Assembly (NCBI GenBank): GCA_035574155.1 | Contig: DATLZD010000075.1 | Span: forward strand, 5-64,004 | DNA: 64,000 bases | From: Dehalococcoidia bacterium | GTDB taxonomy: Bacteria; Chloroflexota; Dehalococcoidia; SM23-28-2; HRBIN24 | Direction: 5' to 3' | In this document: positions 34,347 through 55,945 of the stretch, piece after piece | How the letters are laid out: the number at the start of each line of letters is the position of its first letter | Numbering within the stretch: the first letter of the stretch is position 1 | Translations under genes and position numbers: made by a program | Notes under the pieces: generated by a model | Told to the model about the DNA's origin: nothing | Databases searched by the model: none | What the model saw: the letters and a program-made list of their open reading frames with translations, nothing else

Positions 34347-34396
34347 TTGACGCCGACGCCCCCGACAGCTATAAGTGATAGTCAGATTTTGACTAT
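34347..34396 (+). promoter_or_regulatory. Promoter and operator of the PadR-modABC operon
   Basis: TTGACG-N17-TATAAG, then perfect ATAGTCA-N5-TGACTAT (34378-34396) overlapping the ATG. Confidence 0.65.
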
Positions 34397-35715: not shown

Positions 35716-35716
35716 C

Positions 35717-36361: not shown

Positions 36362-36363
36362 CG

Positions 36364-37500
36364 ATGGACCCGCGCCTGGTCGTCGACATAGAGAAGCGCT
36401 ACCCGGGCTTCCGCCTGCAGGTGCAGCTCGCGGTGGGGACAGAGGTGCTGGTGCTCTACGGGCCTTCAGGGGCCGGCAAGACCCAGACCCTGCGGGCCAT
36501 TGCGGGGCTGGTGCGTCCCGACCGAGGCGAGATCTGGCTGGACGGTCGCCCGCTGTTCCGCTGCGATGGGGGCCGCCGGCCGCTGAACGTGCCCGCCCAT
36601 AAGCGCCGCATCGGCTACGTCTTCCAGGACTACGCCCTCTTCCCTCACCTGACGGCCCTGGAGAACGTGGCCTTCGGCCTGCGAGGGCCGAGGCGGCGGG
36701 AGGAGGCCCTGAGTTGGCTGCGGCGCATGCGCCTGGAGCACGTGGCCCACCTCTACCCGTCCCAGCTGTCGGGCGGCCAGCGGCAGCGGGTGGCCATCGC
36801 CCGCACCCTGGCCACGGCACCCTCGGTCCTGTTCCTGGACGAGCCCTTCTCGGCCCTGGACTTGGACGCCAAGCGGCGCCTCCAGGAGGAGCTGCGGCAG
36901 CTGCAGCGGGAGCTGGGGCTGCCTGTGGTCTATGTGACCCACAGCCTGGAGGACGCCTTCGCCGTGGGCCACCGTATCGCCGTCATCGCTGACGGAAGGC
37001 TCCAGCAGGTGGGGCCCCTGTCGGAGGTGGTAGCCCACCCTGCCAACTGGCAGGTGGCCCGCGCCTTCGGTCTGCCCAACCTGGTGCGGGCCCGAGTGAG
37101 GCGGGCCAGCGCCGACGGCCTCCACCTGGACTGGGACGGCCAGGAGCTGCTGGCTGCCCCCAGGGAGCTATCGCCAGGGGAGGAGGTCCTGGCCTATATC
37201 CGCCCGGAGGAGGTGCGCTTTATCTATCCCGACCGCCCCCTGTCGGCGGCCGTGCGCCACAACCGCCTGCGAGTGCGGGTGTTGGAGCAGAGGCTCGTTC
37301 GGGATGCCCGCCTGGTGCGGGTACGCACGGCCGGCCCGCCCTGGGCCGAACTGGAGGTCCGCTCGCCCCCCAGCACCTACGCCGACCTGGCCCTGGTGCC
37401 CGACAGCGAGCTGGAGGTGGCCATCCGCCCCTCGGGCATCGTGGTGCTGGAGGCCCTGGCTCAGGCCGAGGCCAGCGCCGAGGGCTCCAGCCCCTCGTAG
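36364..37500 (+). CDS. modC: Molybdate ABC transporter ATPase with TOBE domain
   Basis: GPSGAGKT, FQDYALFPH, LSGGQRQR, LDEPFSALD. Confidence 0.88.
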   Translation: MDPRLVVDIEKRYPGFRLQVQLAVGTEVLVLYGPSGAGKTQTLRAIAGLVRPDRGEIWLDGRPLFRCDGGRRPLNVPAHKRRIGYVFQDYALFPHLTALENVAFGLRGPRRREEALSWLRRMRLEHVAHLYPSQLSGGQRQRVAIARTLATAPSVLFLDEPFSALDLDAKRRLQEELRQLQRELGLPVVYVTHSLEDAFAVGHRIAVIADGRLQQVGPLSEVVAHPANWQVARAFGLPNLVRARVRRASADGLHLDWDGQELLAAPRELSPGEEVLAYIRPEEVRFIYPDRPLSAAVRHNRLRVRVLEQRLVRDARLVRVRTAGPPWAELEVRSPPSTYADLALVPDSELEVAIRPSGIVVLEALAQAEASAEGSSPS

Positions 37501-39203
37501 CGGACGACGGCCGGAAAGAGTCTCAGCACCGTGCGGTCGTCGTCGATGCCGCCGAGGGGAGCCGACTGCAGCCGTCGGCGAACGAACAGCCCCGCCACCG
37601 CCGCCTTGCGGGCCGAGCCTGGGCCCTGCAGCTCCGCTGCCGCCTCCTCCAGCAGCAGGGACGCCTGGGCCACGTCGGCCAGCAGGGAGGCCAGCCGACG
37701 GGCATGGAGCTGACGCAGCTCCTCGTCGGCCCCCGAGAGGAAGGCTATCGCCTCCCTCGCCTGGGCCAGGGCACCCGCCGCCACCTGCCGTGGCCGCTGC
37801 AGGAGGCTGTGGTCGGCCCGCTCCAGGGCCGTCTCCAGGCGGGCGAAGAGGGCCTCGTGGGCCCCCTCCCGGGCTATGGCCCGCCAGACGTCCAGGGCGA
37901 TGATGTTCTCGGTGCCCTCCCATATGGTGTGGCACTGGGCGTCCCGCAGCTGGCGGGCCATGGGGAAGTTCTCGATGTAGCCGTTGCCACCCATGATCTC
38001 CAGCCCCTGGCTGGCCAGCTCCAGCCCCCGGCGGGCGGCCCGGAACTTGGAGAGGGGCACCAGGATGCGGTAGAGGCGCCTCGAGTCCTCATCGCCGCGG
38101 CGTCCCGAATGGGCATAGGTCTCGAAGACCAGTGCCGCCGCCGCCTCCACCTCCAGAGCCATCTCCACCAGCGTCTCCCTGACCAGGGGCAGGTCATGCA
38201 GGAGGCGGCCGAAGGCGCGGCGATGGGCGGCGTAGATGGCCGCCTCCAGGAAGCTGCGACGCATGATGCCCAGCGCCATGTTGGCTACCCCCAGGCGGGA
38301 GCCGTTGACCATGCTCATCATGCGGTTGAGGCCCCTCGCCTCGGAGGAATCGGCCCTGGGGCTAGAGAGGATATAGGCCTCGGCGTCCACGAAGTCCACC
38401 TCGGCCGTGGGCACCGAGCGCGTCCCCAGCTTGTCCTTGATGCGCTTGATGACGATGCCGTTGCGGGAGCCGTCGGCCCGCAGGGCCGGCACCAGGAAGA
38501 GGGCGATGCCCTTCAGGCCCTCCGGCGCGCCCTCGGGCCGGGCCAGGGTGACGATGGCCCTGGCATCCACGTTGGAGCAGAACCACTTGGAGCCGTTCAG
38601 CAGCCAGCGGTCGCCGTCCACCTGCCGGGCGGTGGTGGCGGTGCGGGAGAGGTCGGAACCGCCCTCCAGCTCGGTCATGAACATGGCCCCGTCCCAGCCC
38701 TGGTCGAAAGAAGGGGCCAGCAGCCGAGGCAGGAAGCGGGCCTTGACCTCGGCCGGCGCGTAGCGGGAGACTAGGTCGGCCACGCCCCCCGTCATGCCGG
38801 TGGCACAGACGAGGCCCGTGTCGGCCTGGCTCAGCATGTAGGTGAAGGCGGCGCCCAGCACCGACGGCACCTCCTCCCCCCGCGCCTGCAGGGCGTGAGG
38901 CCCCTGCTCCCAGACGTCCCGCTTGTTGGCCAGACCGTCCGGGTGGTGTACCACCTGGCACACCTCACGGCCCCAGGGGTCGTAGCGCTCAAGGCGGGGT
39001 GGGCTCTTGTCCACCGTCTCGGACCGCCGGGCGATGGTGCCGCCCACCAGCTCACCCCAGCGCACCAGGTGCACCTCTGCCCACTCCCGCCGCTCCTGCG
39101 GCAGGTGGCGGTCCATCAGGAAGCGCAGGTTGGGGTCCACTAGGTACCAGTTGAGGCCGATGGCCGACTCGAAGTCCTCGTAGCGGACGGGACCGTAGCT
39201 CAT
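37461..39203 (-). CDS. Acyl-CoA dehydrogenase, AidB-like
   Basis: MFMTELEGGSD, KWFCSN, KDKLGTRSVPTAE, IWEGTENI. Confidence 0.88.
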   Translation of the reverse strand: MSYGPVRYEDFESAIGLNWYLVDPNLRFLMDRHLPQERREWAEVHLVRWGELVGGTIARRSETVDKSPPRLERYDPWGREVCQVVHHPDGLANKRDVWEQGPHALQARGEEVPSVLGAAFTYMLSQADTGLVCATGMTGGVADLVSRYAPAEVKARFLPRLLAPSFDQGWDGAMFMTELEGGSDLSRTATTARQVDGDRWLLNGSKWFCSNVDARAIVTLARPEGAPEGLKGIALFLVPALRADGSRNGIVIKRIKDKLGTRSVPTAEVDFVDAEAYILSSPRADSSEARGLNRMMSMVNGSRLGVANMALGIMRRSFLEAAIYAAHRRAFGRLLHDLPLVRETLVEMALEVEAAAALVFETYAHSGRRGDEDSRRLYRILVPLSKFRAARRGLELASQGLEIMGGNGYIENFPMARQLRDAQCHTIWEGTENIIALDVWRAIAREGAHEALFARLETALERADHSLLQRPRQVAAGALAQAREAIAFLSGADEELRQLHARRLASLLADVAQASLLLEEAAAELQGPGSARKAAVAGLFVRRRLQSAPLGGIDDDRTVLRLFPAVVRYEGLEPSALASA

Positions 39204-39922
39204 GGCGCCTCCTTGCTGGCCTTCTGCCCCTGCTCTTCTGTCTGAGCGCACTCTAAAAACTTAGCGTTTGCCTTGTCAACGGGGGAAGGAGGGGACGCCT
39301 CGGCCGTCTCCTCTGACGGCTCCTCCAGGGCGGCCGTGATGCGCAGGGGGCGGCCCGTCAGCTCGGCGATGGCCTGGGCCACCTGGTAGGCCCGCCCGAA
39401 GCCCTCGTCCACCAGCTCCTGCTCCTCGGGGACGATGACCTGCCCCACCGAGAGGCGCTTGCCGCTGGTCTTGACCAGGACTATCTCCCACCCGCGTAGC
39501 TCGAAGGGGAAGGCGGGGCCGCGGCCCTCCGCTTCCCCCGCCTCCCAGTCGGCCAGCTCGATGTGGTCGATCTTCCAGAAGGGGACCAGCTCCACGGTGC
39601 CCAGGCCCAGCCCCAGCACCCCTTGCTGGAAGCGGGCCGACTGTTTGCGGGCGTCGAACAGGACGTGGGAGCCGAACAGCGAATAGACGGTGCCCATGCC
39701 GCCGATGGGCGTGAGGACCAGCGCCAGCAGCAGGACGACCGCCGCTGCTGCTGCCGGGAGCCGGTCCATGGTGAAGGCCAGGAGGACCAAGAGGCCCACC
39801 GCCAAGGACAACACCGATAGGGGGCCCACCACAGCGCTGCGCGAGGGGCGGATGTCCACCACCCCGGGCCGTAGGATGCAGAGGCGCCTGTCCAGGGGAA
39901 TGGTCTTGGCCGCCGTCGCCAT
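39200..39922 (-). CDS. Hypothetical two-TM membrane protein with PH-like cytoplasmic domain
   Basis: Two hydrophobic segments; ATGA overlap with the dehydrogenase; PH-like fold is only a guess. Confidence 0.65.
   Translation of the reverse strand: MATAAKTIPLDRRLCILRPGVVDIRPSRSAVVGPLSVLSLAVGLLVLLAFTMDRLPAAAAAVVLLLALVLTPIGGMGTVYSLFGSHVLFDARKQSARFQQGVLGLGLGTVELVPFWKIDHIELADWEAGEAEGRGPAFPFELRGWEIVLVKTSGKRLSVGQVIVPEEQELVDEGFGRAYQVAQAIAELTGRPLRITAALEEPSEETAEASPPSPVDKANAKFLECAQTEEQGQKASKEAP
39250..39279 (-). promoter_or_regulatory. Internal sigma70 promoter for the acyl-CoA dehydrogenase
   Basis: TTGACA-N18-TAGAGT in an AT-rich patch inside the upstream CDS tail. Confidence 0.5.
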
Positions 39923-40023
39923 CAGCCGCCACCGCCCTGCAGGGCCATTATAGGCCCGCCCTCGGCCAGCGTCAGTCCCGAAGCTGCCCTGGGCAGACTG
40001 CGGCGGCCCCGGCTGCGAGCGCG

Positions 40024-41340
40024 CTAGACGGTCACGCCGTAGAGGCGTCGCGCTTCCCGGCGCAGTTCGCCGCGGAAGTCAGGGTGGGCCACGGCGATGA
40101 GCTCGCCGATGCGCTGACGTATGCTTTTGCCCCGCAGGGTGGCGATGCCGTATTCCGTCACCACGTAGTCGACGAAGGTCCTGGGCACCGTCACCGCCGA
40201 CCCCTCCGGTAGCACGGGCACGATCCTGGTCCGACGCTCCCCCTGCACCAGGTGGCTGGAGGGCACCACCATCACCGAGCGGCCCCCGGGGGTATACTGG
40301 GCCGCCACCATGAAGGCCGTCTGCCCTCCCACCCCGGCCCAGATGCGGGTGCCGATGGTCTCCGAGACCACCTGCCCGGTGAGGTCCACGAAAAGGGCGT
40401 TGTTGACGCACACGTAGTTGCGTTGCTGGACCAGGACCCGCATGTCAGTAACGTAGCCGAACTCGTAAAGCTCGAAGACGGGGTTGCCGTCCATCATGGA
40501 CAGCTCCTCCGGGCTCAGGACCACGCAGCCGCTGGCCACCACCTTGCCTTCGTGCAGGCCCTTGTATTTGCCTGTGGCCACGCCGTTGGCCACCAGCTGG
40601 GGCACGCCCCCGGTGATCACCTCGGTGTGGAAGCCCAGGTCGTGCTTGTCCCCCAAGTAGAGGGCCAGGGCCGAGGAGACGGTGCCGATGCCCACTTGCA
40701 CCGTGTCCCGGTCCCTGACCAGCTCCTGGGCCACCAGCGTGCAGATGACCTCCGTCACGGCCACCTCTTCCTCCGAGCGGGCCGGGATGGGCAGGGGAGG
40801 CGGCTTCTGCCCTTCCACAAAGACGTCGATGTCCGACATATGGACGTAGTTCTTGCCCCCCGTCCTTATGAAGTCCTCGTGCACCTCGGCTATGACCCGC
40901 TTGGCCCGCCGGCACCAGGTGGGGGCATACCATACCCCCGACCCGAAGCTGCAGTAGCCGTTGCGGTCGGGCGGGGACACGGGCACCAGGAAGAAGTCGG
41001 GCTCTTGCACGTAGCCCGGCGGCAGGTCGTCCATCGTCCAGGCCGCCACCGGGATGTAGTCCACCAGGCCGGCATTGATGGGGTCCCGGTCCACCGCCGT
41101 GGCGTAGTTGCTGATGACGTGGAAGCTGGCGCAGTCGGCCTCCTCCCTGATCCAGGGGAAGAAGCCTGTGTAGACGACGGTGACGTCCCGCAGCTCTCGC
41201 CGCCGTTCGTATAACGCCTGACACAGGGCGAAGGGCATGGGGGTGAAGCCCTGCACGGCCACGCTGTCGCCCGAGCGAACGGCCCTCACCGCCTCCTCGG
41301 GCGTGGCGAGCTTGTCGGCCACCATGCTGCGCCAGTCCAC
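40024..41340 (-). CDS. Acetyl-CoA hydrolase/transferase family (4-hydroxybutyrate CoA-transferase-like)
   Basis: VSPPDRNGYCSFG, QVGIG, GFHTE catalytic Glu, GVGGQ, DYVVTEYGIA.LRGK. Confidence 0.9.
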   Translation of the reverse strand: MDWRSMVADKLATPEEAVRAVRSGDSVAVQGFTPMPFALCQALYERRRELRDVTVVYTGFFPWIREEADCASFHVISNYATAVDRDPINAGLVDYIPVAAWTMDDLPPGYVQEPDFFLVPVSPPDRNGYCSFGSGVWYAPTWCRRAKRVIAEVHEDFIRTGGKNYVHMSDIDVFVEGQKPPPLPIPARSEEEVAVTEVICTLVAQELVRDRDTVQVGIGTVSSALALYLGDKHDLGFHTEVITGGVPQLVANGVATGKYKGLHEGKVVASGCVVLSPEELSMMDGNPVFELYEFGYVTDMRVLVQQRNYVCVNNALFVDLTGQVVSETIGTRIWAGVGGQTAFMVAAQYTPGGRSVMVVPSSHLVQGERRTRIVPVLPEGSAVTVPRTFVDYVVTEYGIATLRGKSIRQRIGELIAVAHPDFRGELRREARRLYGVTV

Positions 41341-41451
41341 CTCTTCACCCCCTCTGGTGCTGGTCTGGTGGCGGACGGCAGCGTCTGGGGTGCCAGGCCT
41401 CGCGCCGCCGGCGCAGGGTCCACCCCCGGCGGCGTCGGGCCCCGACGCCGC

Positions 41452-42732
41452 CTACTGCTCCAGCCTGTTCAGGTCGGGCGCCCAGCCGATGATGCCCTCT
41501 CGTGCCAGCCTCTGGATCTCCTCCTGGGGGAGGCCCAGCAGCTCCCTCAGCACGTACTCGTTGTCCTGCCCAAAGAGGGGGGCGGCCTTGCGGTGGTGGG
41601 CGGCGACGCCCTCCAGGCGGAAGCCGATCCAGGGGTACTCGTGCTCGCCCACGATGTCCCTGGGCAGGGAGACGAAGAAGTCCCGCGCCCTAAGGTGGGG
41701 GTCGACCATCAGGTCCTGAGGTCTCAGGACCGCTCCCGCCGTCACACCCGCCTCCTGCAGCAGGTGCATCAGCTCCAGATGGGAGTGGCGCCGGGTCCAT
41801 TCGCCTATGAGGCAGTCCAGCTCATCCTCGTGGGCCTTCCGGCCGGTGGCCGTGGCGAAGCGCGTCTCCAGCGCCCATTCGGGGTTGCCCATGGCCCGCA
41901 CCAGCCGTCCCCACTCCTCGTCGTCGGCCACGGTGATGGCGATCCACGTATCGGGGTCCCTGCAAGGGTAGACGTTATGAGGCGCCATATACGGGTGCCT
42001 GGTGCCCATACGCCCGTGGGTCCGGCCGCAGAGCTGGTATTCCACCACCCGCCGGCCCATCAGGTAGGTGAAGGCCTGGGTCTGCGGTATCTCGATGAAG
42101 GCGCCCTGGCCGGTCCGGTTGCGGTGCCAGAGGGCCATCATAGTGGCGAAGACGGCGGTGTAGCCCAGGCTGGGGTCCGACATGGCGCCCATGGAGAACG
42201 GCGGCTCGTCGTCGCTATAGCCCGTGGCGTCGCTCCCCCCGCTCAGGTGCTCAAAGGTGAAGGCGAAGCCCACGTAGTCGGCAAGCCTGCTGCAGCTGGG
42301 GTAGGCCGGCATGGCCACCATAATGATATCGGGCTTGACGGCGCGCAGGTCTTCGTAGGTGAGCCCGAAGGAGCGCATCACGTGGTTGGCATGGTTCTCT
42401 ACCACCACGTCCGAGACCGACACCAGCTTTAGGAAGATCTCCCGCCCCTCCTCCCGCTTCAGGTCTACCGCCAGCCCCAGCTTGTTCAGGTTCACGGGGT
42501 TGAAGAGGGGACTGGTCTCCCAGCCGGTCACGTCCCCCAGGGGCCGCGAGGCCAGGCGGTAGCCGTCCAGGTAGGTGGGCGACTCCACCTTGATGACCTC
42601 GGCGCCGAAGGCGCCCATGATGGTGGTGGCCAGCGGCCCCGACCAGTAATGGGTGAAGTCCACCACGCGGACGCCCGCCAGGGGCAAGCGCCCGTCGGGC
42701 CTGGGGTCGCCTCGTTGGGCCTCGACGCTCAT
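41452..42732 (-). CDS. Class III CoA-transferase (CaiB/BaiF), catalytic Asp present
   Basis: VDFTHYWSGP, NLNKLG, MGAMSDPSLG, HPYMAPHNVYPC. Confidence 0.9.
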   Translation of the reverse strand: MSVEAQRGDPRPDGRLPLAGVRVVDFTHYWSGPLATTIMGAFGAEVIKVESPTYLDGYRLASRPLGDVTGWETSPLFNPVNLNKLGLAVDLKREEGREIFLKLVSVSDVVVENHANHVMRSFGLTYEDLRAVKPDIIMVAMPAYPSCSRLADYVGFAFTFEHLSGGSDATGYSDDEPPFSMGAMSDPSLGYTAVFATMMALWHRNRTGQGAFIEIPQTQAFTYLMGRRVVEYQLCGRTHGRMGTRHPYMAPHNVYPCRDPDTWIAITVADDEEWGRLVRAMGNPEWALETRFATATGRKAHEDELDCLIGEWTRRHSHLELMHLLQEAGVTAGAVLRPQDLMVDPHLRARDFFVSLPRDIVGEHEYPWIGFRLEGVAAHHRKAAPLFGQDNEYVLRELLGLPQEEIQRLAREGIIGWAPDLNRLEQ

Positions 42733-43949
42733 ATCACTCCTCCCCGACGCAGCAGGGCCAGGGCCTCGCTGTCCAGCCCCAGCTCCCCTCCCAGGACCTC
42801 CTGGTTGTGCTGGCCCAGCTGTGGCGCCGGCGACCGAACGCTCCAGGGATACCCCAGGAACTGGAAGGGCGCCCCGGGGAACCTCTCTATCACGCCCGCC
42901 CGGGGGTGCTCCAGGCGCCTGAAGAGCTGGACCGCCAGTAGCGGCTCGAAGTTGAGGACGTCTTCCGGGGTATGGAGCATGGCCATGGGTATCCGCTGCT
43001 CCAGCCCGATACGGAAGACCTCCTCCCGCGTGTGGTCCACGAACCAGGGGGCGAAGAGTTCGTAGAACTCCTGGCGGCGCCGCCAGCGGACGTCCAGGGC
43101 CAGCAGCTCAGGGTTCTCCAGCAGCTCTTCGTGGCCCGTCAGGCGACACATGGACTGCCAATGCTTGAAGGTCAAAAGGTAGACGCCGATGTAGCCGTCC
43201 TTGCAGCGGAACTCGCCCACGAAGGGCCGTCCCGAGCGTATGGTCCCCGGGATCACCGGCGGCAGCGGCACCGAGGCCAGCTTGGTCTGGAAGGACCATA
43301 TGACGGTGGGCGTCACCAGGCAGGAGGTGACCGTCTCCATGATGGAGACGTCCACCCTGCGACCGGCACCCCGTTGGTCGGCCTCGTAGAGGGCCATCAT
43401 CGTGCCCGCTGCCCCCACCATGCCGGCCACGAAGTAAAAGGCCTCATTGCCGATGTGGAGGGGCGGTCGGGTCGGTTCGCCCAGCATGTAGACATGGCCG
43501 CCCAGGGCCGCCAGCACCAGGTGGGACGCGCGGAACAGGCTGTAGGGGCCGCTCTGCCCAAAGGGGGTGACGGAGGTGATGACCAGCCTGGGGTTTAGGG
43601 CCCACAGCACCTCGGGGCCGAGCCCCATCTCTTCCAGGCTGCCGGGCGGATAGCTCTCCACCAGGACGTGGGCCTTGGCCACCAGCTTGAGCAGCAGCTC
43701 CCGGCCGGTGCGGCTCCCCAGGTTGAGGGTTATGCCCTTCTTGTTGGCATTGACGAACAGATGGGTAGGGCTGGCCTCCATGTCGGGGGCCCCGTTGGGG
43801 AAGGGCCCCCAGTGGCGGCAGATGTCGCCCAGGAAGGGGGGTTCTACCTTTATGACCTCGGCGCCGTAATCGCCCAGGATCCTGGCCGTGAAAGGGCCCG
43901 CCGCGCCGGTGCTTATATCGATGACCCTGATCCCGTCCAGTAGGGCCAT
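42729..43949 (-). CDS. Class III CoA-transferase subunit lacking catalytic Asp
   Basis: GPFTARILGDYGAEVIKVE, NANKKG, TPFGQSGP; Asp position reads GNEAFYFVAG. Confidence 0.88.
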   Translation of the reverse strand: MALLDGIRVIDISTGAAGPFTARILGDYGAEVIKVEPPFLGDICRHWGPFPNGAPDMEASPTHLFVNANKKGITLNLGSRTGRELLLKLVAKAHVLVESYPPGSLEEMGLGPEVLWALNPRLVITSVTPFGQSGPYSLFRASHLVLAALGGHVYMLGEPTRPPLHIGNEAFYFVAGMVGAAGTMMALYEADQRGAGRRVDVSIMETVTSCLVTPTVIWSFQTKLASVPLPPVIPGTIRSGRPFVGEFRCKDGYIGVYLLTFKHWQSMCRLTGHEELLENPELLALDVRWRRRQEFYELFAPWFVDHTREEVFRIGLEQRIPMAMLHTPEDVLNFEPLLAVQLFRRLEHPRAGVIERFPGAPFQFLGYPWSVRSPAPQLGQHNQEVLGGELGLDSEALALLRRGGVI

Positions 43950-44013
43950 GTCCCTCCTCTCCCGCACAGCTACGGCCGTTGGCTCGACCCTAGGCCCGCT
44001 TTGGTCGCTGCAT

Positions 44014-44042
44014 AATGTATCCAGACAACATGAATGTGTCAA
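44014..44042 (-). promoter_or_regulatory. sigma70 promoter of the leftward CoA-transferase operon
   Basis: TTGACA-N17-TACATT; ACAT-GA-ATGT palindrome overlaps the spacer. Confidence 0.7.
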
Positions 44043-44221
44043 CGGCATCGGGGAGAGGCCGTGCTGGGCGCCACAGCAGCCAGCGATGGTGGGGGCCGCG
44101 GTGGCCGCTGGGCGTGGGGCGGGGCCCTTGCGGGGCGCGCGGACGGGAAGGGCCCAGGGCGGCCCCGGGCTGGACCGCCCCCCCATGGCCCAGCCCCTTT
44201 GCGTCGGCCCGCTGCAACGTG

Positions 44222-44251
44222 TTGAACATGTCGTCGCCTTGGTGCTATAAT
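44222..44251 (+). promoter_or_regulatory. sigma70 promoter of the carboxylase operon
   Basis: TTGAAC-N18-TATAAT with extended -10 TG. Confidence 0.7.
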
Positions 44252-44334
44252 CCCGACCAAACCCGGCCGACAGTCCTGCCTATGATGCTGCCCAGGCGGT
44301 GACGCAGCGGGACGGGCTTAAACGAGGTGTGTAG

Positions 44335-46473: not shown

Positions 46474-46491
46474 GGCAGGGGGAGTGAGAGC

Positions 46492-48696: not shown

Positions 48697-48731
48697 GGGG
48701 CGCGACAACATACCGCTGCAGGTGGTGAGCC

Positions 48732-49295
48732 ATGTCCGAGTACGACATCAGCGAGATAGAGAAGCTGGCCGACGGCAAGCTCCCCTGGACCCGCGTCCAG
48801 GAGATCATGCGCCTGCCCAAGGACCCCGACCGCTTCTTCAAATGGCTGCGCATCCTCCAGTCGCGGGTGCCCTGGCCCGACCGCATCCTTCTGCCCCTGA
48901 CCACGGCCCTCTTCATCGTCCAGAAGGAGGACGGCCGCCGCCTGGTCAAGTGCCGCTGCGGCTATGAGTTCGACGACTACCGAATCAACTGGAAGCTCCA
49001 CGCCTTGGTCTACGTCCGGGAGACCGAGGAGCAGATGCGTGAGGTCTACCGGGGCCGTGAGATGCCCGATCCCACTTGGGTGCAGGTCCGCGAATACTAC
49101 TGCCCTGGCTGCGCCACCCAGCTGGAGGTGGAGGCCGTCCCCAGGGGCTGCCCCCCCGATTTCGAGTTCCTGCCGGACATCGACACCTTCTATGCTCAGT
49201 GGCTAGGGCAGCCCCTGGCGGGGCAGCCCTACGAGTTCGAGGACCGGACCCAGCAGCTCATCGACCAGTGGGCCAGAGAGGACTTGGGTAGCTGA
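48732..49295 (+). CDS. acxC: Acetone-carboxylase-family gamma subunit (Zn-binding)
   Basis: KDPDRF, CRCG, NWK, EYYCPGC, EVEAVP.G.P, FLPDIDTFY.QWLG. Confidence 0.9.
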   Translation: MSEYDISEIEKLADGKLPWTRVQEIMRLPKDPDRFFKWLRILQSRVPWPDRILLPLTTALFIVQKEDGRRLVKCRCGYEFDDYRINWKLHALVYVRETEEQMREVYRGREMPDPTWVQVREYYCPGCATQLEVEAVPRGCPPDFEFLPDIDTFYAQWLGQPLAGQPYEFEDRTQQLIDQWAREDLGS

Positions 49296-49318
49296 GATAC
49301 CGGGGCGGTGGCATCCTG

Positions 49319-50527
49319 ATGGCGCAGGCCCTCCAGGGCGTTACCGTTGTGGAGCTGGTGGACGGCTTCTGGGCCGGTCTGGGCACCACCTTTATGGCCG
49401 ACTTCGGCGCCCGGGTGGTAAAGGTCACTGCCGGTGCCTCCCCCCTGGACGGCCTCGCGAAGGCCCATCGCGATGTCCCCCCGGAGCACGTGAAGCACCT
49501 CTATCATCTGGTGGGGCGCAACAAGCTGGGCGTCGCCCTAGACCTGTCGGGGCAGGAGGGCCAGGACCTGCTGCGCCGGCTGGCGACGGCTGCCGACGTC
49601 TTCGTCAGCGACTGGCCCCGCCGCGATCTCGAGGCCCTCGCCCTGGACTACGAGTCGTTGCGGGCCAGGAGGGAGGACATCGTCTACGTCACGGCCTCGG
49701 GCTTCGGCCAGAAGGGGCCCGATGCTGACCTCCCGAACCTGGAGGAGCTGGCAGCGGCCCGCATCGGCCTCATGCCCATCCTCCCCCAGCCGGGGAGGCC
49801 GCCGGTGTATCCCGGCCACGGCCAGATCTACGCCTCGGGCCTCCTGCTGCTGGGGGCCAGCATCGCCCTCTGGCACCGCCAGCGGACGGGCGAGGGCCAG
49901 TGGGTGGACGTCTCCCTGTTGGCGGCGGGCATGTACGGCGCGACGCTGGACGTGCAGGCGTATCTGGCCATGCGCAGCGAGCGCTTCCTGCGCCCCATCT
50001 CCCGCTACGATGCCGGCAACCCCATGAGCGGGACCTACTACCTGACCAGCGACGGTCGCTGGCTGACCCTCACCATGCCCGACACGGACCGCTACTGGCC
50101 TCGGCTAGCCCCCCTGGTGGGGCTGGACCCGGCCGACCCCCGCTTCGACACCCACGAAAAGCGGTGCGAGGTGAACCGTCTGGAGCTGATCCGCTTGTTG
50201 GAGGAGGCCTTCCGGCGCGCCCCGTCCGACTACTGGAAGGAGGCCATGGAAGAACACGACCTTTCGGGCGACATCATCGAGGACTACTCATACCCGGCCA
50301 ACGACGAGTTCGCCCGCCTGAACGGCTACGTCCTATCGCTGGACCATCCCCTAATGGGGGATCTGAAGCTGCTGGGCTTCCCCATTTACATGAGCGAGAC
50401 CCCCGCCTCCCTGGACCGGCTGGCGCCGTGTCCCCATCAGCACACGGCCCAGGCCCTGCGTTCCCTGCTGGGGCTGTCCGAGGAGGAGGTGGTGGCCCTG
50501 CAGGAGAAGGGCGTCATCAGGCCCTGA
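49319..50527 (+). CDS. Class III CoA-transferase subunit lacking catalytic Asp
   Basis: MADFGARVVKV, GRNKLG, SGFGQKGP; Asp region reads PGHGQIYASG. Confidence 0.85.
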   Translation: MAQALQGVTVVELVDGFWAGLGTTFMADFGARVVKVTAGASPLDGLAKAHRDVPPEHVKHLYHLVGRNKLGVALDLSGQEGQDLLRRLATAADVFVSDWPRRDLEALALDYESLRARREDIVYVTASGFGQKGPDADLPNLEELAAARIGLMPILPQPGRPPVYPGHGQIYASGLLLLGASIALWHRQRTGEGQWVDVSLLAAGMYGATLDVQAYLAMRSERFLRPISRYDAGNPMSGTYYLTSDGRWLTLTMPDTDRYWPRLAPLVGLDPADPRFDTHEKRCEVNRLELIRLLEEAFRRAPSDYWKEAMEEHDLSGDIIEDYSYPANDEFARLNGYVLSLDHPLMGDLKLLGFPIYMSETPASLDRLAPCPHQHTAQALRSLLGLSEEEVVALQEKGVIRP

Positions 50528-50538
50528 CGGTAGACGAC

Positions 50539-51747
50539 ATGTTGCCTCTCGAAGGCCTGCGCATCGTCGACCTGACGGTATGGTTCCAGGGGCCGATAGC
50601 CACCCGACTGCTGGCCGACTTTGGGGCCGAGGTCATCCACCTGGAGAGGCCCCAGGGCGGCGACCCGGCCCGCGGCGTGAGGACCATCAGGGCCGTCCCT
50701 GTGGGGGACTGGAACCAGTACTTTCTGGTCAATAACCGCAACAAGAAGAGCGTGGCTGTCGACTTGAACCAGGAGGAGGGGCAGGCCATCGTCCATCGCC
50801 TGGTCCAGGAGTCGGACGCCTTCGTCACCAACCTGGCCCCGGAGCACCTGAGGCGCTGGAAGGTGGACTACGAGCACCTGCGGGCCATCAACCCCCGCCT
50901 GGTCTACGGCATGGCCAGCGGCTACGGCCGCTTCACGCCCACCCGTCGCCCCGCCTTCGACCTGACGGTCCAGGCCCTGACGGGAGTCATGGCCCGCCTG
51001 GGCGAGCCAGGCGAGCCTCCCATCTACCTGGGCATGGGCTCGGGCGACGCCATGGGCGGGCTGCTGCTGGCCGGGGGGGTGATGATGGCCCTCCTGGCCC
51101 GCAGCCACTTGGGCCGGGGACAGCTAGTGGAGGTGTCCCTCTACGGCGCCCAGCTCTATCTGGGCGCTCCCACCTTGCAGGCCTACCTGGCCAGCGGCGA
51201 CGACCGCCTACGCCGGCAGCGCTCCCGCCTGGAGCCCGTGAACCCCCTCAACAACGTCTTCCCCAGCTCCGACCGGTGGCTGGTCCTGTGCCTGCCCAAC
51301 GAGGACGGTGCCTGGCACGCCCTGTGCGAGACGCTGGAGCGGCCGGAGCTGGCCGCCGACCAGCGCTTCGCCACTCCCCAGTCCAGGGAGGCGAACTGCC
51401 GCCCGTTGACCGAGGCCCTGGACGACGTCATCAGCTCGCGGCCGGCCGAGCACTGGCTGCGCCGGTGGCGCCAGCGGGGCTTTCCCTGCGCTCCGGTCAA
51501 CACCCTGGCCGACCTGGCTGCCGACCCTCAGGCGTGGGCCAACGACTACCTGATGCGGGCCTACTGCCCGGAGATAGACCAGGAGGTGGACGTCCCCGGC
51601 ATGGCCCTGACCCTCTCCCGCACCCCCGGACAGATCCGGCACCTGGGGCCGGAGCTGGGCCAGGACACGGAGCAGGTGCTGGTAGAGGTCCTGGGCTACT
51701 CCTGGGACGACGTGATCCGATTCAAGGACAAGGGGGTGATCCTATGA
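50539..51747 (+). CDS. Class III CoA-transferase (CaiB/BaiF), catalytic Asp present
   Basis: VDLTVWFQGP, NRNKKS, GMGSGDAMGG, NPLNNVF, PELGQDTE. Confidence 0.9.
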   Translation: MLPLEGLRIVDLTVWFQGPIATRLLADFGAEVIHLERPQGGDPARGVRTIRAVPVGDWNQYFLVNNRNKKSVAVDLNQEEGQAIVHRLVQESDAFVTNLAPEHLRRWKVDYEHLRAINPRLVYGMASGYGRFTPTRRPAFDLTVQALTGVMARLGEPGEPPIYLGMGSGDAMGGLLLAGGVMMALLARSHLGRGQLVEVSLYGAQLYLGAPTLQAYLASGDDRLRRQRSRLEPVNPLNNVFPSSDRWLVLCLPNEDGAWHALCETLERPELAADQRFATPQSREANCRPLTEALDDVISSRPAEHWLRRWRQRGFPCAPVNTLADLAADPQAWANDYLMRAYCPEIDQEVDVPGMALTLSRTPGQIRHLGPELGQDTEQVLVEVLGYSWDDVIRFKDKGVIL

Positions 51748-52187
51748 CCGGAGCGGAAGAGGCGACCCAGGGGACGAAACGGGTCCCCTTCACCCAGGGC
51801 GCCTTCATGGAGACCCCACAAGGCCCACGCCTGATCGGCTCCAGGTGCCCCGCCTGCGGGACCGTCTTCTTCCCTAAGGCGGACGTGTGCCGGGTGCCCA
51901 GCTGCATGAGCACCACCGAGGAGATGCTGCTGGGGCCCCGCGGCAAGCTGTGGAGCTACAGCGTCCAGTATTTCAAGCCCCCTCCTCCCATACGGGTCGA
52001 GGAGCCCTTCCGGCCCTACGCCGTGGGGATGGTGGACATGGACGGGGTCCGGATCATCGGCATGCTGACGGAGGCGGACCTGGACGTCCTACGGCCGGAC
52101 ATGGAGGTTGAACTGGTAATTGACATGTTGTATCGTGACGCGGACGGCAACGAGGTGGTCACCTGGAAGTTCCGGCCTGTGCGTTGA
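51744..52187 (+). CDS. DUF35 Zn-ribbon/OB-fold protein
   Basis: GSRCPACG..FFP...C....C, GKLWSYS, PYAVG; ATGA overlap with upstream gene. Confidence 0.9.
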   Translation: MTGAEEATQGTKRVPFTQGAFMETPQGPRLIGSRCPACGTVFFPKADVCRVPSCMSTTEEMLLGPRGKLWSYSVQYFKPPPPIRVEEPFRPYAVGMVDMDGVRIIGMLTEADLDVLRPDMEVELVIDMLYRDADGNEVVTWKFRPVR

Positions 52188-52198
52188 GGAGGTAGGTC

Positions 52199-53383
52199 AT
52201 GAGAGAGGTAGCAGTGCTCGGGGTCGGTGCCCATCCCTGGGGCAGGTTCGATGCGATCCCCCTGTCCCAGATGTGTCGCGTGGCCATCGAGGCAGCCCTC
52301 AAGGATGCCGGCGTGAGCTGGAGGGAGATCCAGGCCGTCGTCGCCGGCGGCTCCCGCTTCTCGGGCGGCTACGGCTGGGCCCTCAACGGCAACGAGATGG
52401 CGGCGGAGATGGGCCTCAGCGGTATCCCCGTCTACAACCTCACGGCCGCCTGTGCCGCTGGCGGCAGCGCCTTCAACATCGCCTACACGCTGGTGGCCAG
52501 CGGCATGCACGACCTGGTGCTGGTCTTCGGCGGTGAGAAGCCGCCACGGGGCTTCTTCCCCCTCAGCCGGGACGAGGCCGATCCCCTGGACCCTCAGTTC
52601 CTGCAGGTGGTGGGTGCCGGCCTCACCGGCCCCGCTTTCTGGGCCATGCTGGCCAGGAGGCGTATGCATGACTACGGCACCACCGAGGAGCAGCTGGCCA
52701 AGGTGGTGGTCAAGGCCCGCCGCCTGGGCGCCCACAACCCCATAGCTAGGTACCGTCAGGAGATCACCGTCGAGGACGTCCTCAACTCGCCCATGGTGTG
52801 CTATCCCCTGCACCTCTTCGAGATCTGCGCCATCAGCGATGGCGCAGCGGCGGCGGTCCTGGCCTCCGCCGACGAGGCCCGCAAGCGGACCAGCCGCCCC
52901 GTCTGGGTGGCGGGCGCGGCCATCTGCACGGCCGAGCTGGGGGACGGGCTGCCCAGGGGCGTGTCGGCCATAGGTGGCTGCGCTCCCAGGGCCTACCACA
53001 GCGAGGTGGCCAAGGCCGTCCGCCTGGCCCTGGAGCGGGCCGGCATGGAGCCCAAGGACATCGACCTCATCGAGCTGCAGGAGAACATCCCCTACTACGA
53101 GCTGGCCCTGCCGGAGGAGTGGGGCTTCTGGGAGCCGGGCGAGGGCGAGAAGATGCTGGAGAGCGGCGAGACGCTCCCCACCGGCAGGACGCCGGTCAAC
53201 CCCAGCGGCGGCTTCCTGTCCTTCGGCGAGGCGACAACGGCCATGGGGGTGTGGCAGGTGTACGAGGTGGCCCTGCAGCTGCGCGGGGAGGCCGGCGCCC
53301 GGCAGGTGCCGGGGGCCAAGACGGGCCTGGCCCAGACCCTGGGCCTGGGTCCCAACGGCAGCGCCATCGTCCTCAAGAGGTAG
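52199..53383 (+). CDS. SCP2-type thiolase-fold protein with non-canonical active site
   Basis: NLTAACAAG, NPIA, CAISDGAAA, VNPSGG; ELQENI and GEATT replace HDAF and GHP. Confidence 0.85.
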   Translation: MREVAVLGVGAHPWGRFDAIPLSQMCRVAIEAALKDAGVSWREIQAVVAGGSRFSGGYGWALNGNEMAAEMGLSGIPVYNLTAACAAGGSAFNIAYTLVASGMHDLVLVFGGEKPPRGFFPLSRDEADPLDPQFLQVVGAGLTGPAFWAMLARRRMHDYGTTEEQLAKVVVKARRLGAHNPIARYRQEITVEDVLNSPMVCYPLHLFEICAISDGAAAAVLASADEARKRTSRPVWVAGAAICTAELGDGLPRGVSAIGGCAPRAYHSEVAKAVRLALERAGMEPKDIDLIELQENIPYYELALPEEWGFWEPGEGEKMLESGETLPTGRTPVNPSGGFLSFGEATTAMGVWQVYEVALQLRGEAGARQVPGAKTGLAQTLGLGPNGSAIVLKR

Positions 53384-53406
53384 TCCAGCGCAATAAGGAG
53401 TGGGCC

Positions 53407-54348
53407 ATGAAGTTCGGAGTCGGTCTGCCGGTAGTCCACCTTTACCCCGTGACCGCCAACCAGTGGGAGTATACGGCGCCGCCGTCGGTCGCGACCGAGA
53501 TCGCCCAGAAGGCCGATGAGTTGGGGTTCGACTTCCTCATCATCCCCGAGCACATCGTCATCCCCAACGAGATGCTGGAGACCATGGGTGCCCGCTACCC
53601 GGATGCCCTGGCGGCCATGGCCTTCATCGCCGGGGCCACCAAGAACATCAAGGTCCTGAGCTACATCCTGGTGCTGCCCTACCGGAACCCCATAGTGGCT
53701 GCCAAGACCATAGCCACCATGGACTTCCTGTCCAATGGGCGGGTGCTGGTGGGCACCGCCGTGGGCCACATGCAGCGGGAGTTCGAGATCCTGGGGGTGC
53801 CCTTCCACGAGCGAGGCAAGCTCATGGACGAGTACCTGCTGGCCATGAAGGAGCTGTGGACCCAGGACTCGCCGAGCTTCGAGGGCCGCTACGTCCGCTT
53901 CTCGGATATCCGCTTCGAGCCCAAGCCCGTGCAGAAGCCACACCCGCCCATCTGGCTGGGGGGCAACACCAAGCCTGCCATGCGGCGGGCGGCCAACCTG
54001 GGCGATGGCTGGATACCGTGGCTCATCGGCCCCGAGCAGATGCCCCAGTGCCTGGAGTACATCTTCTCGCAGCCAGGCTTCCAGAGCAGGTTCCCCAACG
54101 GCAAGGGGTTCGACGTGATCGTGCCCCTGGCCCGCTTCCAGGTAGAGGACTACTCCCACCGCGAGCTGGGTCCGACGGTGATGCCCCGCGGCAAGGACGA
54201 GATCGTCGAGGCTATCGGCCAGTGGAAGGAGGTGGGTGTGACGGGGGTGGTCATCAACTTCCCCCGCACCCGCAGCCCCGAGCAGGCGATGGACTGGTTG
54301 GAGTGGTATGCCAGGGAGATAGTCCCGGTCTTTAAGGACGGCTCCTGA
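53407..54348 (+). CDS. LLM-class oxidoreductase, probably F420-dependent (Rv2161c-like)
   Basis: IPEHIV, LVLPYRNP, DFLSNGR, PKPVQKPHPPIWLGG, GDGWIP. Confidence 0.85.
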   Translation: MKFGVGLPVVHLYPVTANQWEYTAPPSVATEIAQKADELGFDFLIIPEHIVIPNEMLETMGARYPDALAAMAFIAGATKNIKVLSYILVLPYRNPIVAAKTIATMDFLSNGRVLVGTAVGHMQREFEILGVPFHERGKLMDEYLLAMKELWTQDSPSFEGRYVRFSDIRFEPKPVQKPHPPIWLGGNTKPAMRRAANLGDGWIPWLIGPEQMPQCLEYIFSQPGFQSRFPNGKGFDVIVPLARFQVEDYSHRELGPTVMPRGKDEIVEAIGQWKEVGVTGVVINFPRTRSPEQAMDWLEWYAREIVPVFKDGS

Positions 54349-54375
54349 GAGCCGAGGACAGAAGAGGAGGTCATC

Positions 54376-55806
54376 ATGGCGCTCTGGCACAAGCTCAGGC
54401 TACCGGCGGCGCTGGCGGTCGTTGCCGCGTCGCTCCTCCTGGCCGTTGCCTGTGAGGGAGAGGAGGAGGCCCCTGCCACTCCCACCCCCGGCGCGGGCGG
54501 TCAGCAGCAGGTGCGGCCGGGAGCGGCGGGCATACCCAGCAACCCGCGCCAGGTGCGGGGGCTGGAGGGCATCCTCACGCTGGACGATGGGCTGGCCATG
54601 TTCCGGCAGCGTCCGGCCAGCGAGACGCGCACCGGCGTGACGTCCACCACCATCAAGCTGGGCCGAACAGCGGACATGTCGGGCCCCTTCGCCCCCTACG
54701 AGCCTTTCTGGGGGCGGATGTTGGAGGCCCTCATCAAGAGGATCAACGATGCGGGCGGCATCCACGGCCGACGTATCGAGCTGGTGACAGTGGACGACAA
54801 GTCTGACCCGGCCCTGGCCGTCCAAGTCACCCGCAGACTGGTGGAGCAGGACAACGTCTTCGCCCTGTTCTTCAGCATCGGTGCCCCTTCCCACGCGGCC
54901 GTGCACGACTACCACGTGCAGCGGCGGGTGCCCAACTTCTACTACTTCGACGCCTCTCCCCTGGGGATGGAGCCGGAGACGTCGCCCTATGACTACAACG
55001 GCCAGAACTCGGACCACATGAGCGGTCTGGCCATGGCCGAGGCCCTGTTCCGTATCGACCCCAATGCCCGGCCCATCCTGGTCTATGCTGACTTCCCCGC
55101 CTCCCAGGCCGGCCGCGACGGCATTCGTTATGGCGTCCAGAAGCAGGGCAAGAGCCTGGTGGGCGAGCTGTCCCACGACCTGACCCAACTCGATTTGACG
55201 TCCATCGCCCAGCAGGTCATCCGCTCCGGCGCCAACTGGGTGCTCTATCATGGCTCCATCACCCAGTCCATCTCGCTGGTGAAGGCCCTGCGGGACCTGG
55301 GCAGCAACATCCGGGTCTTCCAGTGGGGCTGGGTCCCTACCGGTGACCCCGGCAGCGATGCCCTGATGGATGGGACCTACCAGGTGACCTTCTTCTGCTC
55401 CCAGTTCTCCTGCCCCGACCGCCAGGTCTTCCAGCGCCTGCAGGCCGTAGCCCAGGAGGAGGGCGTACCTTATAACCCCTTCCTGTCGGTCCAAGCGCTG
55501 ATGGCGGTGGAGCACCTGGTGCGGGCCCTGGAGATGGCCGGTCCTGACCTGACCAGGGAAGGCTTCATCGAGGCCCTCAACAACGGGTTCGATGGCAGCT
55601 GGCAGTGCTCGGCCTGCCTCGCCCCTACCATCATGAACCCTCAGGACCACTGGATTAATGAGACCTACCTCATCACCCAGTGGCAGAACGCCTCCCGCCG
55701 CTTCCAGGTGCTGGGCACCCTGGACTACGAGACCAGCAAGGGCAGGGGCCTGAGGGGCAACCTGCCGGGATTCGATTGCCGCCCTGGCACCTGTCCCTGG
55801 AGGTAG
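54376..55806 (+). CDS. ABC-type solute-binding lipoprotein (type I, LIV-like)
   Basis: Lipobox LAVAC, GVTSTTIKLG, INDAGGIHGR.IEL...DD, LTREGFIEAL. Confidence 0.85.
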   Translation: MALWHKLRLPAALAVVAASLLLAVACEGEEEAPATPTPGAGGQQQVRPGAAGIPSNPRQVRGLEGILTLDDGLAMFRQRPASETRTGVTSTTIKLGRTADMSGPFAPYEPFWGRMLEALIKRINDAGGIHGRRIELVTVDDKSDPALAVQVTRRLVEQDNVFALFFSIGAPSHAAVHDYHVQRRVPNFYYFDASPLGMEPETSPYDYNGQNSDHMSGLAMAEALFRIDPNARPILVYADFPASQAGRDGIRYGVQKQGKSLVGELSHDLTQLDLTSIAQQVIRSGANWVLYHGSITQSISLVKALRDLGSNIRVFQWGWVPTGDPGSDALMDGTYQVTFFCSQFSCPDRQVFQRLQAVAQEEGVPYNPFLSVQALMAVEHLVRALEMAGPDLTREGFIEALNNGFDGSWQCSACLAPTIMNPQDHWINETYLITQWQNASRRFQVLGTLDYETSKGRGLRGNLPGFDCRPGTCPWR

Positions 55807-55841
55807 CGAGGGGCGGGGCGCAGGGGACATCAGGCGTCCTT

Positions 55842-55889
55842 GGTCGGGGGCCTGGTCGGGGGCGAGTCCCCCAGTCCAGGCCCCCGACC
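55842..55889. repeat. 14-bp perfect inverted repeat at the island end
   Basis: GGTCGGGGGCCTGG-N20-CCAGGCCCCCGACC; TGGTCGGGGG also directly repeated. Confidence 0.7.
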
Positions 55890-55945
55890 GTGCTGCGTCG
55901 CTGGGGCCGACCCGTCCGCCCTTGTCCTGCAGGTGATGGCCTTGT

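Follow-up and report, generated by a model that had tools for sequence, protein, structure and literature searches.

A deep-branching relative of acetone carboxylase and its conserved neighbors: a candidate ketone-carboxylation pathway in uncultured bacteria

An operon for a carboxylase, CoA-transferases, and a thiolase-like protein

We analyzed a stretch of 64,000 nucleotides ("the window") from a Dehalococcoidia bacterium (assembly GCA_035574155.1, contig DATLZD010000075.1). The window encodes a three-subunit enzyme that is related to acetone carboxylase (Acx), in an operon with coenzyme A (CoA)-transferases and a thiolase-like protein. A first-pass annotation, made from the sequence alone, had described two divergent operons at this locus as a single island for the catabolism of a ketone. 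Because the G+C content of the window is around 70%, raw lists of open reading frames (ORFs) are noisy, so we confirmed the genes with Pfam and NCBIfam scans. All of the genes that the annotation had listed are real and lie where it had placed them. Gene starts were re-set by their Shine-Dalgarno context, and active-site residues were assigned from alignments to solved structures.

The rightward operon (44335-55806) is compact, and neighboring genes are only -4 to 35 nt apart (Table 1). The three Acx-type subunits are encoded together, in the order beta-alpha-gamma. They are followed by two family III CoA-transferases (CoAT3 and CoAT4), a DUF35 protein, a thiolase-like protein of the SCP-x type, a luciferase-like oxidoreductase (LLM), and a solute-binding protein (SBP). 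As the annotation had noted, neither an AMP-binding CoA ligase nor a dedicated regulator is encoded in the stretch.

Table 1. Features of the locus, in window coordinates, and a fusion gene from related loci
Feature	Position	Strand	Evidence or remarks
Promoter-like site, rightward operon	44222-44251	+	TTGAAC-18-TGcTATAAT, extended -10
Carboxylase beta (HydA type, ATP-binding)	44335-46473	+	Pfam Hydant_A_N, Hydantoinase_A, Hydant_A_C
Carboxylase alpha (HydB type, metal site)	46492-48696	+	Pfam Hydantoinase_B
Carboxylase gamma (Zn ribbon)	48732-49295	+	Acetone_carb_G PF08882, 135 bits
CoAT3, family III CoA-transferase without the catalytic Asp	49319-50527	+	PF02515
CoAT4, family III CoA-transferase, putative catalytic subunit	50539-51747	+	PF02515, motif GSGDAMGG
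DUF35 partner protein (Zn ribbon and OB fold)	51744-52187	+	PF12172, PF01796; 4-nt overlap with CoAT4
SCP-x-type thiolase-like protein	52199-53383	+	Pfam thiolase domains
LLM, F420-class luciferase-like oxidoreductase	53407-54348	+	TIGR03619, 220.8 bits (cutoff 166.9)
SBP, lipoprotein solute-binding protein, Peripla_BP_6	54376-55806	+	Pfam; lipobox LAVAC
Promoter-like site, leftward CoA-transferase genes	44042-44014	-	TTGACA-17-TACATT
CoAT1, family III CoA-transferase without the catalytic Asp	42729-43949	-	Pfam; ATG start at 43949 with Shine-Dalgarno sequence
CoAT2, family III CoA-transferase with the catalytic Asp	41452-42732	-	Pfam
AcCoAT, family I acetyl-CoA hydrolase/transferase, butyryl-CoA:acetate CoA-transferase-like	40024-41340	-	Pfam; TIGR03948, 208 bits, below cutoff
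Promoter-like site of the membrane gene	39975-39947	-	CTGACG-17-TATAAT
Membrane protein, 240 aa	39200-39922	-	No Pfam match
ACAD, AidB-like acyl-CoA dehydrogenase	37461-39203	-	Pfam
Gamma-DUF35-crotonase fusion (related loci)	L067:18864-20639; also L038, L058, L069, L077, L080		Amidohydro_2 gene and Sal/Ltp2-like aldolase alongside

The carboxylase is a divergent member of the Acx family

In the structural database, the best match for each of the three subunits is Acx, which is known from Xanthobacter autotrophicus Py2 (PDB 5M45/5SVB) and Aromatoleum aromaticum. Alpha scores 384 bits against the alpha subunit from X. autotrophicus, versus 151 bits against the delta subunit of acetophenone carboxylase (Apc); beta scores 574 bits against its counterpart, versus 373 bits against the gamma subunit of Apc; and gamma scores 157 bits, versus 43 bits for Apc. 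The window's enzyme and Acx also share their gene order and a zinc-ribbon gamma subunit, in which the Cys4 motif (CxC...CxxC) is retained. The manganese ligands of the Xanthobacter enzyme are His150, Asp153, His175, and Glu89 (PMC5543143), and they align to H134, D137, H159, and D73 of the window's alpha subunit, with Glu89 replaced by Asp. These ligands are invariant among the 14 clade members that we aligned. The gamma gene is the only one in the genome (~2.0 Mb, 96% complete). Gamma subunits are reported to be specific to the Acx and Apc carboxylases (PMC13677872).

As the first-pass annotation had proposed, the enzyme is divergent. Its alpha and gamma subunits are just 33% and 45% identical to those of Xanthobacter Acx, and none of the carboxylase subunits reaches an NCBIfam equivalog cutoff. 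(The best NCBIfam match of beta is CapA, at 401 bits, and alpha matches CapB at 69 bits; the cutoff for each of these is 1000.) In a tree of 103 sequences, the clade that contains the window's alpha subunit has 100% support, and its sister is a second uncharacterized clade. Both of these lie outside the branch with Xanthobacter Acx alpha, and Apc delta is far away. When we searched 1.84 billion cluster representatives, the window's clade formed a single 50% cluster, and the next relatives were at most 40% identical. By these comparisons, the enzyme is an uncharacterized, deep-branching member of the Acx family, and it does not cluster with the characterized acetone carboxylases.

The genes that follow the carboxylase also distinguish it from known systems. 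Acx stands alone or adjoins acetoacetate enzymes, whereas the window's operon continues with a CoA-transferase pair and the DUF35 and thiolase-like genes. Like Acx, Apc and the Acr enzyme of Rhodococcus belong to this superfamily, use ATP to carboxylate ketones, and have a small zinc subunit; the Acr-type enzyme accepts longer aliphatic ketones (PMC13677872). But Apc and Acr have their own duplicated HydA subunit and an epsilon subunit of ~30 kDa (PMC13677872), and we found neither a second HydA gene nor an extra gene of that kind between beta and CoAT3. Also, a CoA ligase is the presumed activator of the Apc product (PMC13677872), while the window has a CoA-transferase instead.

Some of the Acx-like alpha matches in other Dehalococcoidia genomes (G067, G185, G237, G118, G250, and others) contain an apparent internal TGA, which we considered as a selenocysteine codon. 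We rejected this: the TGA is the stop codon of alpha, and the gamma gene follows in frame.

Distribution and conserved neighbors

We found over 500 homologs at 60-72% identity, and all of those with source names are from metagenome-assembled genomes (MAGs). We took 80 loci from species-representative genomes, all of which are MAGs, and searched them for the window's proteins with tblastn. These loci are from Myxococcota and "Deltaproteobacteria", Binatia, Dehalococcoidia/Chloroflexota, Acidimicrobiia, Gammaproteobacteria (Steroidobacteraceae and Halieaceae), and other groups. The window itself is from a Dehalococcoidia MAG, whose Ffh shares 94% identity with a protein that carries the name "Dehalococcoidia bacterium". 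Among 301 Dehalococcoidia genomes, just three contain an ortholog of the carboxylase: the window's own genome, one from the same genus (97% identity), and one from the same order (68% identity). It is absent from another genome of the same genus and from three genomes of the same family. The carboxylase is thus accessory in this class, and it was probably acquired by horizontal transfer.

The most conserved neighbors are CoAT3 and CoAT4. Orthologs of both (45-61% identity) are encoded directly after gamma in 44 of the 58 loci with enough downstream sequence, and these loci represent at least five phyla. The proposed link between a CoA-transferase pair and the carboxylase is thus borne out. Of the 41 loci with 7.5 kb or more of sequence on each side, 15 have an ortholog of the thiolase-like protein (55-65% identity) within their flanks of 7.5-10 kb, usually paired with DUF35. 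The arrangement of this pair varies. In Dehalococcoidia, it lies downstream of the carboxylase; in marine loci of the Myxococcota type, it is part of a divergent NMO-ETFbeta-ETFalpha-DUF35-thiolase unit; and in a contig from Acidimicrobiales, it is ~27 kb from the carboxylase.

The other genes of the supposed island are not conserved with the carboxylase. Orthologs of the acyl-CoA dehydrogenase (ACAD), AcCoAT, the membrane protein, SBP, CoAT1, and CoAT2 are near the carboxylase in none of the 80 loci, and LLM is nearby in just 3 of the 41. LLM and SBP are lineage-specific additions to the operon. The assignment of LLM to the F420-linked class stands: it scores above the cutoff for TIGR03619, and cofD, for the biosynthesis of F420, is encoded elsewhere in the genome (326 bits, versus a cutoff of 257).

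Several of the other loci have additional neighbors. The gene just before beta encodes a CoxG/SRPBCC protein (START-like, ligand-binding) in loci from Chloroflexota, the Myxococcota type, and Acidimicrobiia (L052:7037-7621, L085:7146-7769, and L087:180-884). The window has no such gene. Loci from Acidimicrobiia also carry genes for molybdenum hydroxylases, which fit hydrophobic substrates other than acetone. Another frequent neighbor is an Amidohydro_2 gene.

We also looked at one member of the sister clade, P0121 (40% identity; L088:1794-10054). It adjoins an SDR gene, a gene of the Asp/Glu-racemase family, and a glycyl-radical enzyme with its activase, and the CoA-transferase pair is absent from this locus. 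This is another uncharacterized context for a ketone carboxylase, and apparently an anaerobic one.

The CoA-transferase pair has a single predicted active site

CoAT3 and CoAT4 are encoded by adjacent genes of the same family (PF02515), but they are only 33% identical and appear to be unlike subunits. At the column of the catalytic Asp of family III, CoAT4 has Asp and CoAT3 has Tyr/Gln. (Similarly, among the leftward genes, CoAT2 has the Asp and CoAT1 does not.) The pattern is absolute across orthologs: the Asp is present in 45 of 45 proteins of the CoAT4 type and in none of 50 of the CoAT3 type. This suggests that the pair forms an obligate heterodimer with one active site.

In other loci, a third CoA-transferase usually follows CoAT3 and CoAT4. 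It has the catalytic Asp in 15 of 15 cases, and in some loci it and CoAT4 form a single protein, such as the one of 825 amino acids from locus L085. Such fusions suggest that the third CoA-transferase works with CoAT4. More broadly, tandem fusions of family III CoA-transferases (800-831 amino acids) adjoin carboxylase or thiolase modules at L085:14094-16571, L086:20130-21183, and L102:1-881.

The first-pass annotation had compared these genes to BbsEF and BbsAB from the anaerobic degradation of toluene (PDB 9FN0 and 7PXP). The resemblance is in the architecture: both systems have a family III CoA-transferase that is encoded by two genes, followed by DUF35 and a thiolase-fold enzyme of the SCP-x type, and the window's system would likewise use CoA transfer in place of ligation. 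However, the window's proteins are probably not orthologs of the Bbs proteins. The chains of 9FN0 (BbsEF) match at 142 bits (CoAT4 against the B chain) and 88 bits, which is below the scores of generic matches that resemble formyl-CoA transferase. This makes orthology to BbsE or BbsF unlikely.

The thiolase-like protein lacks both catalytic histidines

The closest structures to the window's thiolase-like protein are an SCP2-thiolase, an archaeal thiolase, and BbsB, and the motifs HD[CA]F and GHP are kept in all three. (BbsB has HDAF and GHP.) The window's protein retains the nucleophilic Cys, in TAACAAG, but QENI replaces HDCF and GEA replaces GHP. It scores just 157 bits for BbsB, versus a cutoff of 750. 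The same pattern, with the Cys kept and both His lost, is found in each of the 20 orthologs with conserved synteny, and among the 120 best homologs in the database it holds for about 115-119. As judged from these alignments, the protein is a conserved His-less variant of thiolase. The Gln could aid the oxyanion hole and the Glu could serve as a base. Because both catalytic His are lost, plain thiolysis as by BbsAB, which had been suggested for this pair, cannot be assumed. In known cases, DUF35/SCP-x-type enzymes act on bulky or branched substrates.

Database names for these proteins vary. Several of the His-less thiolases (P0418, P0427, and P0498) are named "transporter" at NCBI and "acetyl-CoA acetyltransferase" at JGI, and both names are probably wrong.

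In some lineages, a gamma domain is fused to a hydratase-aldolase system

In six loci from Acidimicrobiia, a second gamma, DUF35, and a crotonase are encoded in a single ORF of about 591 amino acids (Table 1). The Pfam domains of this fusion are Acetone_carb_G, zf-ChsH2, OB_ChsH2_C, and ECH_1. For the adjoining gene, which encodes another protein with a thiolase fold, the best match in PDB is the steroid aldolase TcLtp2 (260 bits). We examined six proteins of this type, five from Acidimicrobiia and one from Dehalococcoidia (loci L006, L038, L058, L069, L077, and L080), and all six have Gly at the position of the nucleophile as well as the motif YDCF. The Gly and this motif define the retro-aldolases Sal, SLP, and Ltp2, to which a hydratase is bound through DUF35 (PMC12329534). 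The window's thiolase-like protein is not of this type, as it has Cys and QENI instead of Gly and YD[HC][FY].

A Dehalococcoidia locus from the same order has modules of both kinds. After the carboxylase, it encodes DUF35 and a His-less thiolase, an Amidohydro_2 protein, an aldolase-like protein, another DUF35, an ECH protein, and an LLM.

Retro-aldol cleavage of a 3-hydroxyacyl-CoA gives a carbonyl compound. The fusion of a gamma domain to a hydratase-aldolase complex therefore argues that the carboxylase receives a ketone that is produced on site from an acyl-CoA with a branch or a ring. The related loci resemble the ChsH1-ChsH2-Ltp2 and Shy-Sal systems in that a thiolase-fold protein with Gly and YDCF is encoded beside a fusion of DUF35 and a hydratase. 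They differ in that the hydratase is a crotonase instead of a MaoC protein, and in the fused gamma domain. The window differs from these systems in having no hydratase-aldolase module at all.

The leftward genes and the extent of the accessory block

The 385-nt spacer between CoAT1 and beta does contain back-to-back sigma-70-like promoter sites, as had been reported: there are 3 matches, versus 0.2 expected from shuffled sequences. However, the divergent arrangement is not conserved. Relative to the same-genus genome G086 and to metagenome contigs of 89% identity, and likewise in comparisons with L081, L082, and L099 (same-genus genomes and metagenome contigs at 87-92% nucleotide identity), the window is inverted from 34378 to ~44200 (~9.8 kb). 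The inverted segment contains PadR, modABC, ACAD, the membrane gene, AcCoAT, CoAT2, and CoAT1. In the relatives with the opposite orientation, it is PadR that is divergent from the gene for the beta subunit. Thus, the back-to-back arrangement of promoters is specific to the window's genome. The promoter-like site of the rightward operon is just inside the part that is collinear with the same-genus genomes, which begins at 44220. In a search for inverted repeats at the breakpoints, we found only weak, chance-level matches. In G086, the inverted segment directly abuts the region that corresponds to 16-21.8 kb of the window, and the region from 21.8 to 34.4 kb is located elsewhere.

Two of the leftward genes, those for ACAD and the membrane protein, belong to the core of the family and lie outside of the island. 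One genome of the genus has no carboxylase; there, the sequence homologous to the window covers 34370-39980, with PadR at one end and the membrane gene at the other, and unrelated genes come next. The pair is also present in genomes from the same family, at 59-77% identity and with no adjoining CoA-transferases, and orthologs of ACAD (73-87%) are found in G299, G062, G140, and G260, all of which lack the carboxylase. The membrane gene overlaps the start of ACAD by 4 nt and has its own promoter-like site just upstream, which suggests that the two are a unit of their own with coupled translation.

Since homology to the same-genus genome without the carboxylase stops at 39980, we take the accessory block to be 39981-55900. 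Its G+C content is 67.2%, versus 70.2% and 70.5% for the flanks, and no other stretch of 15.9 kb within 1-39980 is below 69.0%. The block includes three leftward genes (AcCoAT, CoAT2, and CoAT1), whose orthologs are confined to the two carboxylase-bearing genomes of the genus. For CoAT2, the ortholog in G086 is 92% identical, and the paralogs in other relatives are at most 43% identical. Similar CoAT-CoAT-AcCoAT modules, which are paralogous to this one, are found elsewhere in the family (G086:C31:176748-180460, G260:C120, G062:C9, and G299:C6). Participation of AcCoAT, CoAT2, and CoAT1 in the carboxylase pathway is possible but unsupported.

This family of Dehalococcoidia has 4-9 paralogs of family III CoA-transferases per genome of ~2 Mb. 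This resembles the expansions of CaiB-type proteins in SAR202.

A candidate pathway and its alternatives

On balance, we favor a pathway in which a ketone larger than acetone would be carboxylated by the deep-branching relative of Acx, activated by CoA transfer, and then cleaved at a carbon-carbon bond. Given the homology to Acx and the conserved ligands, beta would use ATP to activate the ketone and bicarbonate, and the metal site of alpha would join the two to form a beta-keto acid. The strict synteny of CoAT3 and CoAT4 suggests that CoAT4, with CoAT3 as its Asp-less partner, converts the beta-keto acid to a CoA thioester, with no further expense of ATP. The thiolase-like enzyme, bound to DUF35, may then cleave the beta-ketoacyl-CoA or may carry out another C-C cleavage; the chemistry of this step is uncertain. 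In the window's genome, a secondary alcohol may be the source of the ketone, by the action of LLM, while in other lineages the ketone might be generated on the spot by the hydratase-aldolase complex that is fused to the second gamma. The substrate is probably not acetone, and a larger aliphatic, isoprenoid, or alicyclic ketone is more likely: the neighbors in other loci (ETF, NMO, crotonases, the Sal/Ltp2-like aldolase, and CoxG/SRPBCC) point to the chemistry of branched or alicyclic acyl-CoAs. We did not find a description of this combination of genes in the literature that we searched, which agrees with the first-pass annotation.

Some of our observations weigh against this pathway. The thiolase-like protein lacks the His residues of every characterized thiolase, so the C-C cleavage step may be a different reaction. 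One locus has no carboxylase within 10 kb of its DUF35/thiolase pair, which is accompanied by genes for NMO, ETF, LLMs, a KstD-like flavoprotein, and MaoC hydratases; the pair is thus not exclusive to the pathway. Similarly, the loci from Acidimicrobiia and Steroidobacteraceae lack orthologs of CoAT3 and CoAT4, so the module is not universal. Within the window itself, no aldolase, ETF, or crotonase hints at the source of the ketone. And the substrate may still be acetone or butanone.

If it is, then the enzyme could be a plain, if divergent, acetone/butanone carboxylase. An atypical family III CoA-transferase would then activate acetoacetate, and the thiolase-like enzyme would split it to two acetyl-CoA. 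The gene order, the conserved gamma subunit and metal ligands, and the status of Xanthobacter Acx as the nearest relative among solved structures are as expected for such an enzyme, and Acx-like genes of Dehalococcoidia have been interpreted as being for acetone utilization (PMC4959651). We consider this explanation unlikely. Characterized Acx enzymes are about 68% identical to each other (PMC10865871), versus 33% for the window's alpha subunit and Xanthobacter. The window's protein is in a separate and deep clade, and a 2026 paper on deep AcxB clades from marine environments does not assign them any specificity (PMC13714315). Also, the operon lacks the canonical acetoacetate enzymes and has DUF35/SCP-x-type partners, and the neighbors in other loci, as listed above, do not suggest acetone. 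Even less probable, in our view, is that the enzyme spends ATP to hydrolyze a cyclic amide or a similar ring, as hydantoinase, oxoprolinase, and caprolactamase do, and passes an acid to the CoA-transferase. The superfamily does include lactamases, the best NCBIfam match of beta is CapA, and Amidohydro_2 is often nearby. But gamma, which is reportedly specific to carboxylases, is always present, and alpha keeps the metal ligands of the carboxylases and groups with Acx instead of with hydantoinase B or CapB. We think that a hydrolase is very unlikely.

The remaining alternative, put forward by the first-pass annotation, joins the two operons in a single pathway whose substrate is an aromatic or heterocyclic ketone, with F420-linked oxidation of an alcohol, carboxylation, CoA transfer, thiolysis, and steps that depend on ACAD. 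AcCoAT, CoAT2, and CoAT1 do share the low-G+C accessory block with the carboxylase and, within the genus, occur only alongside it; and LLM is of the F420 class in a genome with cofD. However, ACAD and the membrane gene belong to the core and are present without the carboxylase, the divergent arrangement is inverted in relatives, the leftward genes and SBP are not found near the carboxylase in any of the 80 other loci and LLM rarely is, and independent CoAT-CoAT-AcCoAT modules exist within the family. As for the substrate, none of the loci have neighbors from aromatic pathways. We conclude that the two operons are quite unlikely to form one such pathway, and we do not retain the aromatic or heterocyclic substrate. 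This leaves carboxylation of a larger ketone, followed by CoA transfer and C-C cleavage, as our preferred explanation for the rightward operon.

A broader form of this proposal can also be imagined, and we hold it only tentatively, as it is more doubtful than not. The clade as a whole might carboxylate ketones that are cut by hydratase-aldolases from beta-branched or ring-bearing acyl-CoAs (isoprenoid, sterol- or hopanoid-like, or other alicyclic compounds) or that are oxidized from secondary alcohols. Together with ATP-free CoA transfer and a His-less retro-Claisen reaction, this would be an oxygen-independent alternative to the Baeyer-Villiger oxygenases. The zinc ribbons of gamma and DUF35 might couple the carboxylase to the aldolase or the thiolase, and the route might be used on recalcitrant organic matter by abundant uncultured heterotrophs (Dehalococcoidia, Binatia, marine Myxococcota, and Acidimicrobiia). 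Carboxylation of isoprenoid ketones is familiar from older physiological work, which we take as a lead only. For SAR202, which has expanded CaiB-type CoA-transferases, routes with Baeyer-Villiger monooxygenases have been proposed for alicyclic ketones (PMC5395668). We speculate that the carboxylation route could be the oxygen-independent counterpart of these.

Implications

To our knowledge, only two kinds of ATP-dependent ketone carboxylases have been characterized: the acetone/butanone type and the acetophenone/Acr type. The clade described here defines a third lineage, a large one with representatives in several phyla, and none of the genomes that we examined provided a cultured member. Its members should not be annotated as "acetone carboxylase", or their thiolase-like partners as "acetyl-CoA acetyltransferase", without caution. 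The enzyme superfamily is known, and the conserved architecture of the pathway is undescribed. The lineage appears to have a conserved downstream chemistry of its own, with a half-dead CoA-transferase heterodimer, a His-less enzyme with a thiolase fold, and gene fusions that link carboxylase and hydratase-aldolase. Should the substrate indeed be a larger or cyclic ketone, then these bacteria would break inert ketones without oxygen, by an undescribed route. This would bear on the turnover of isoprenoid and alicyclic carbon in subsurface and dark-ocean habitats, and it would provide a new CO2-fixing biocatalyst.

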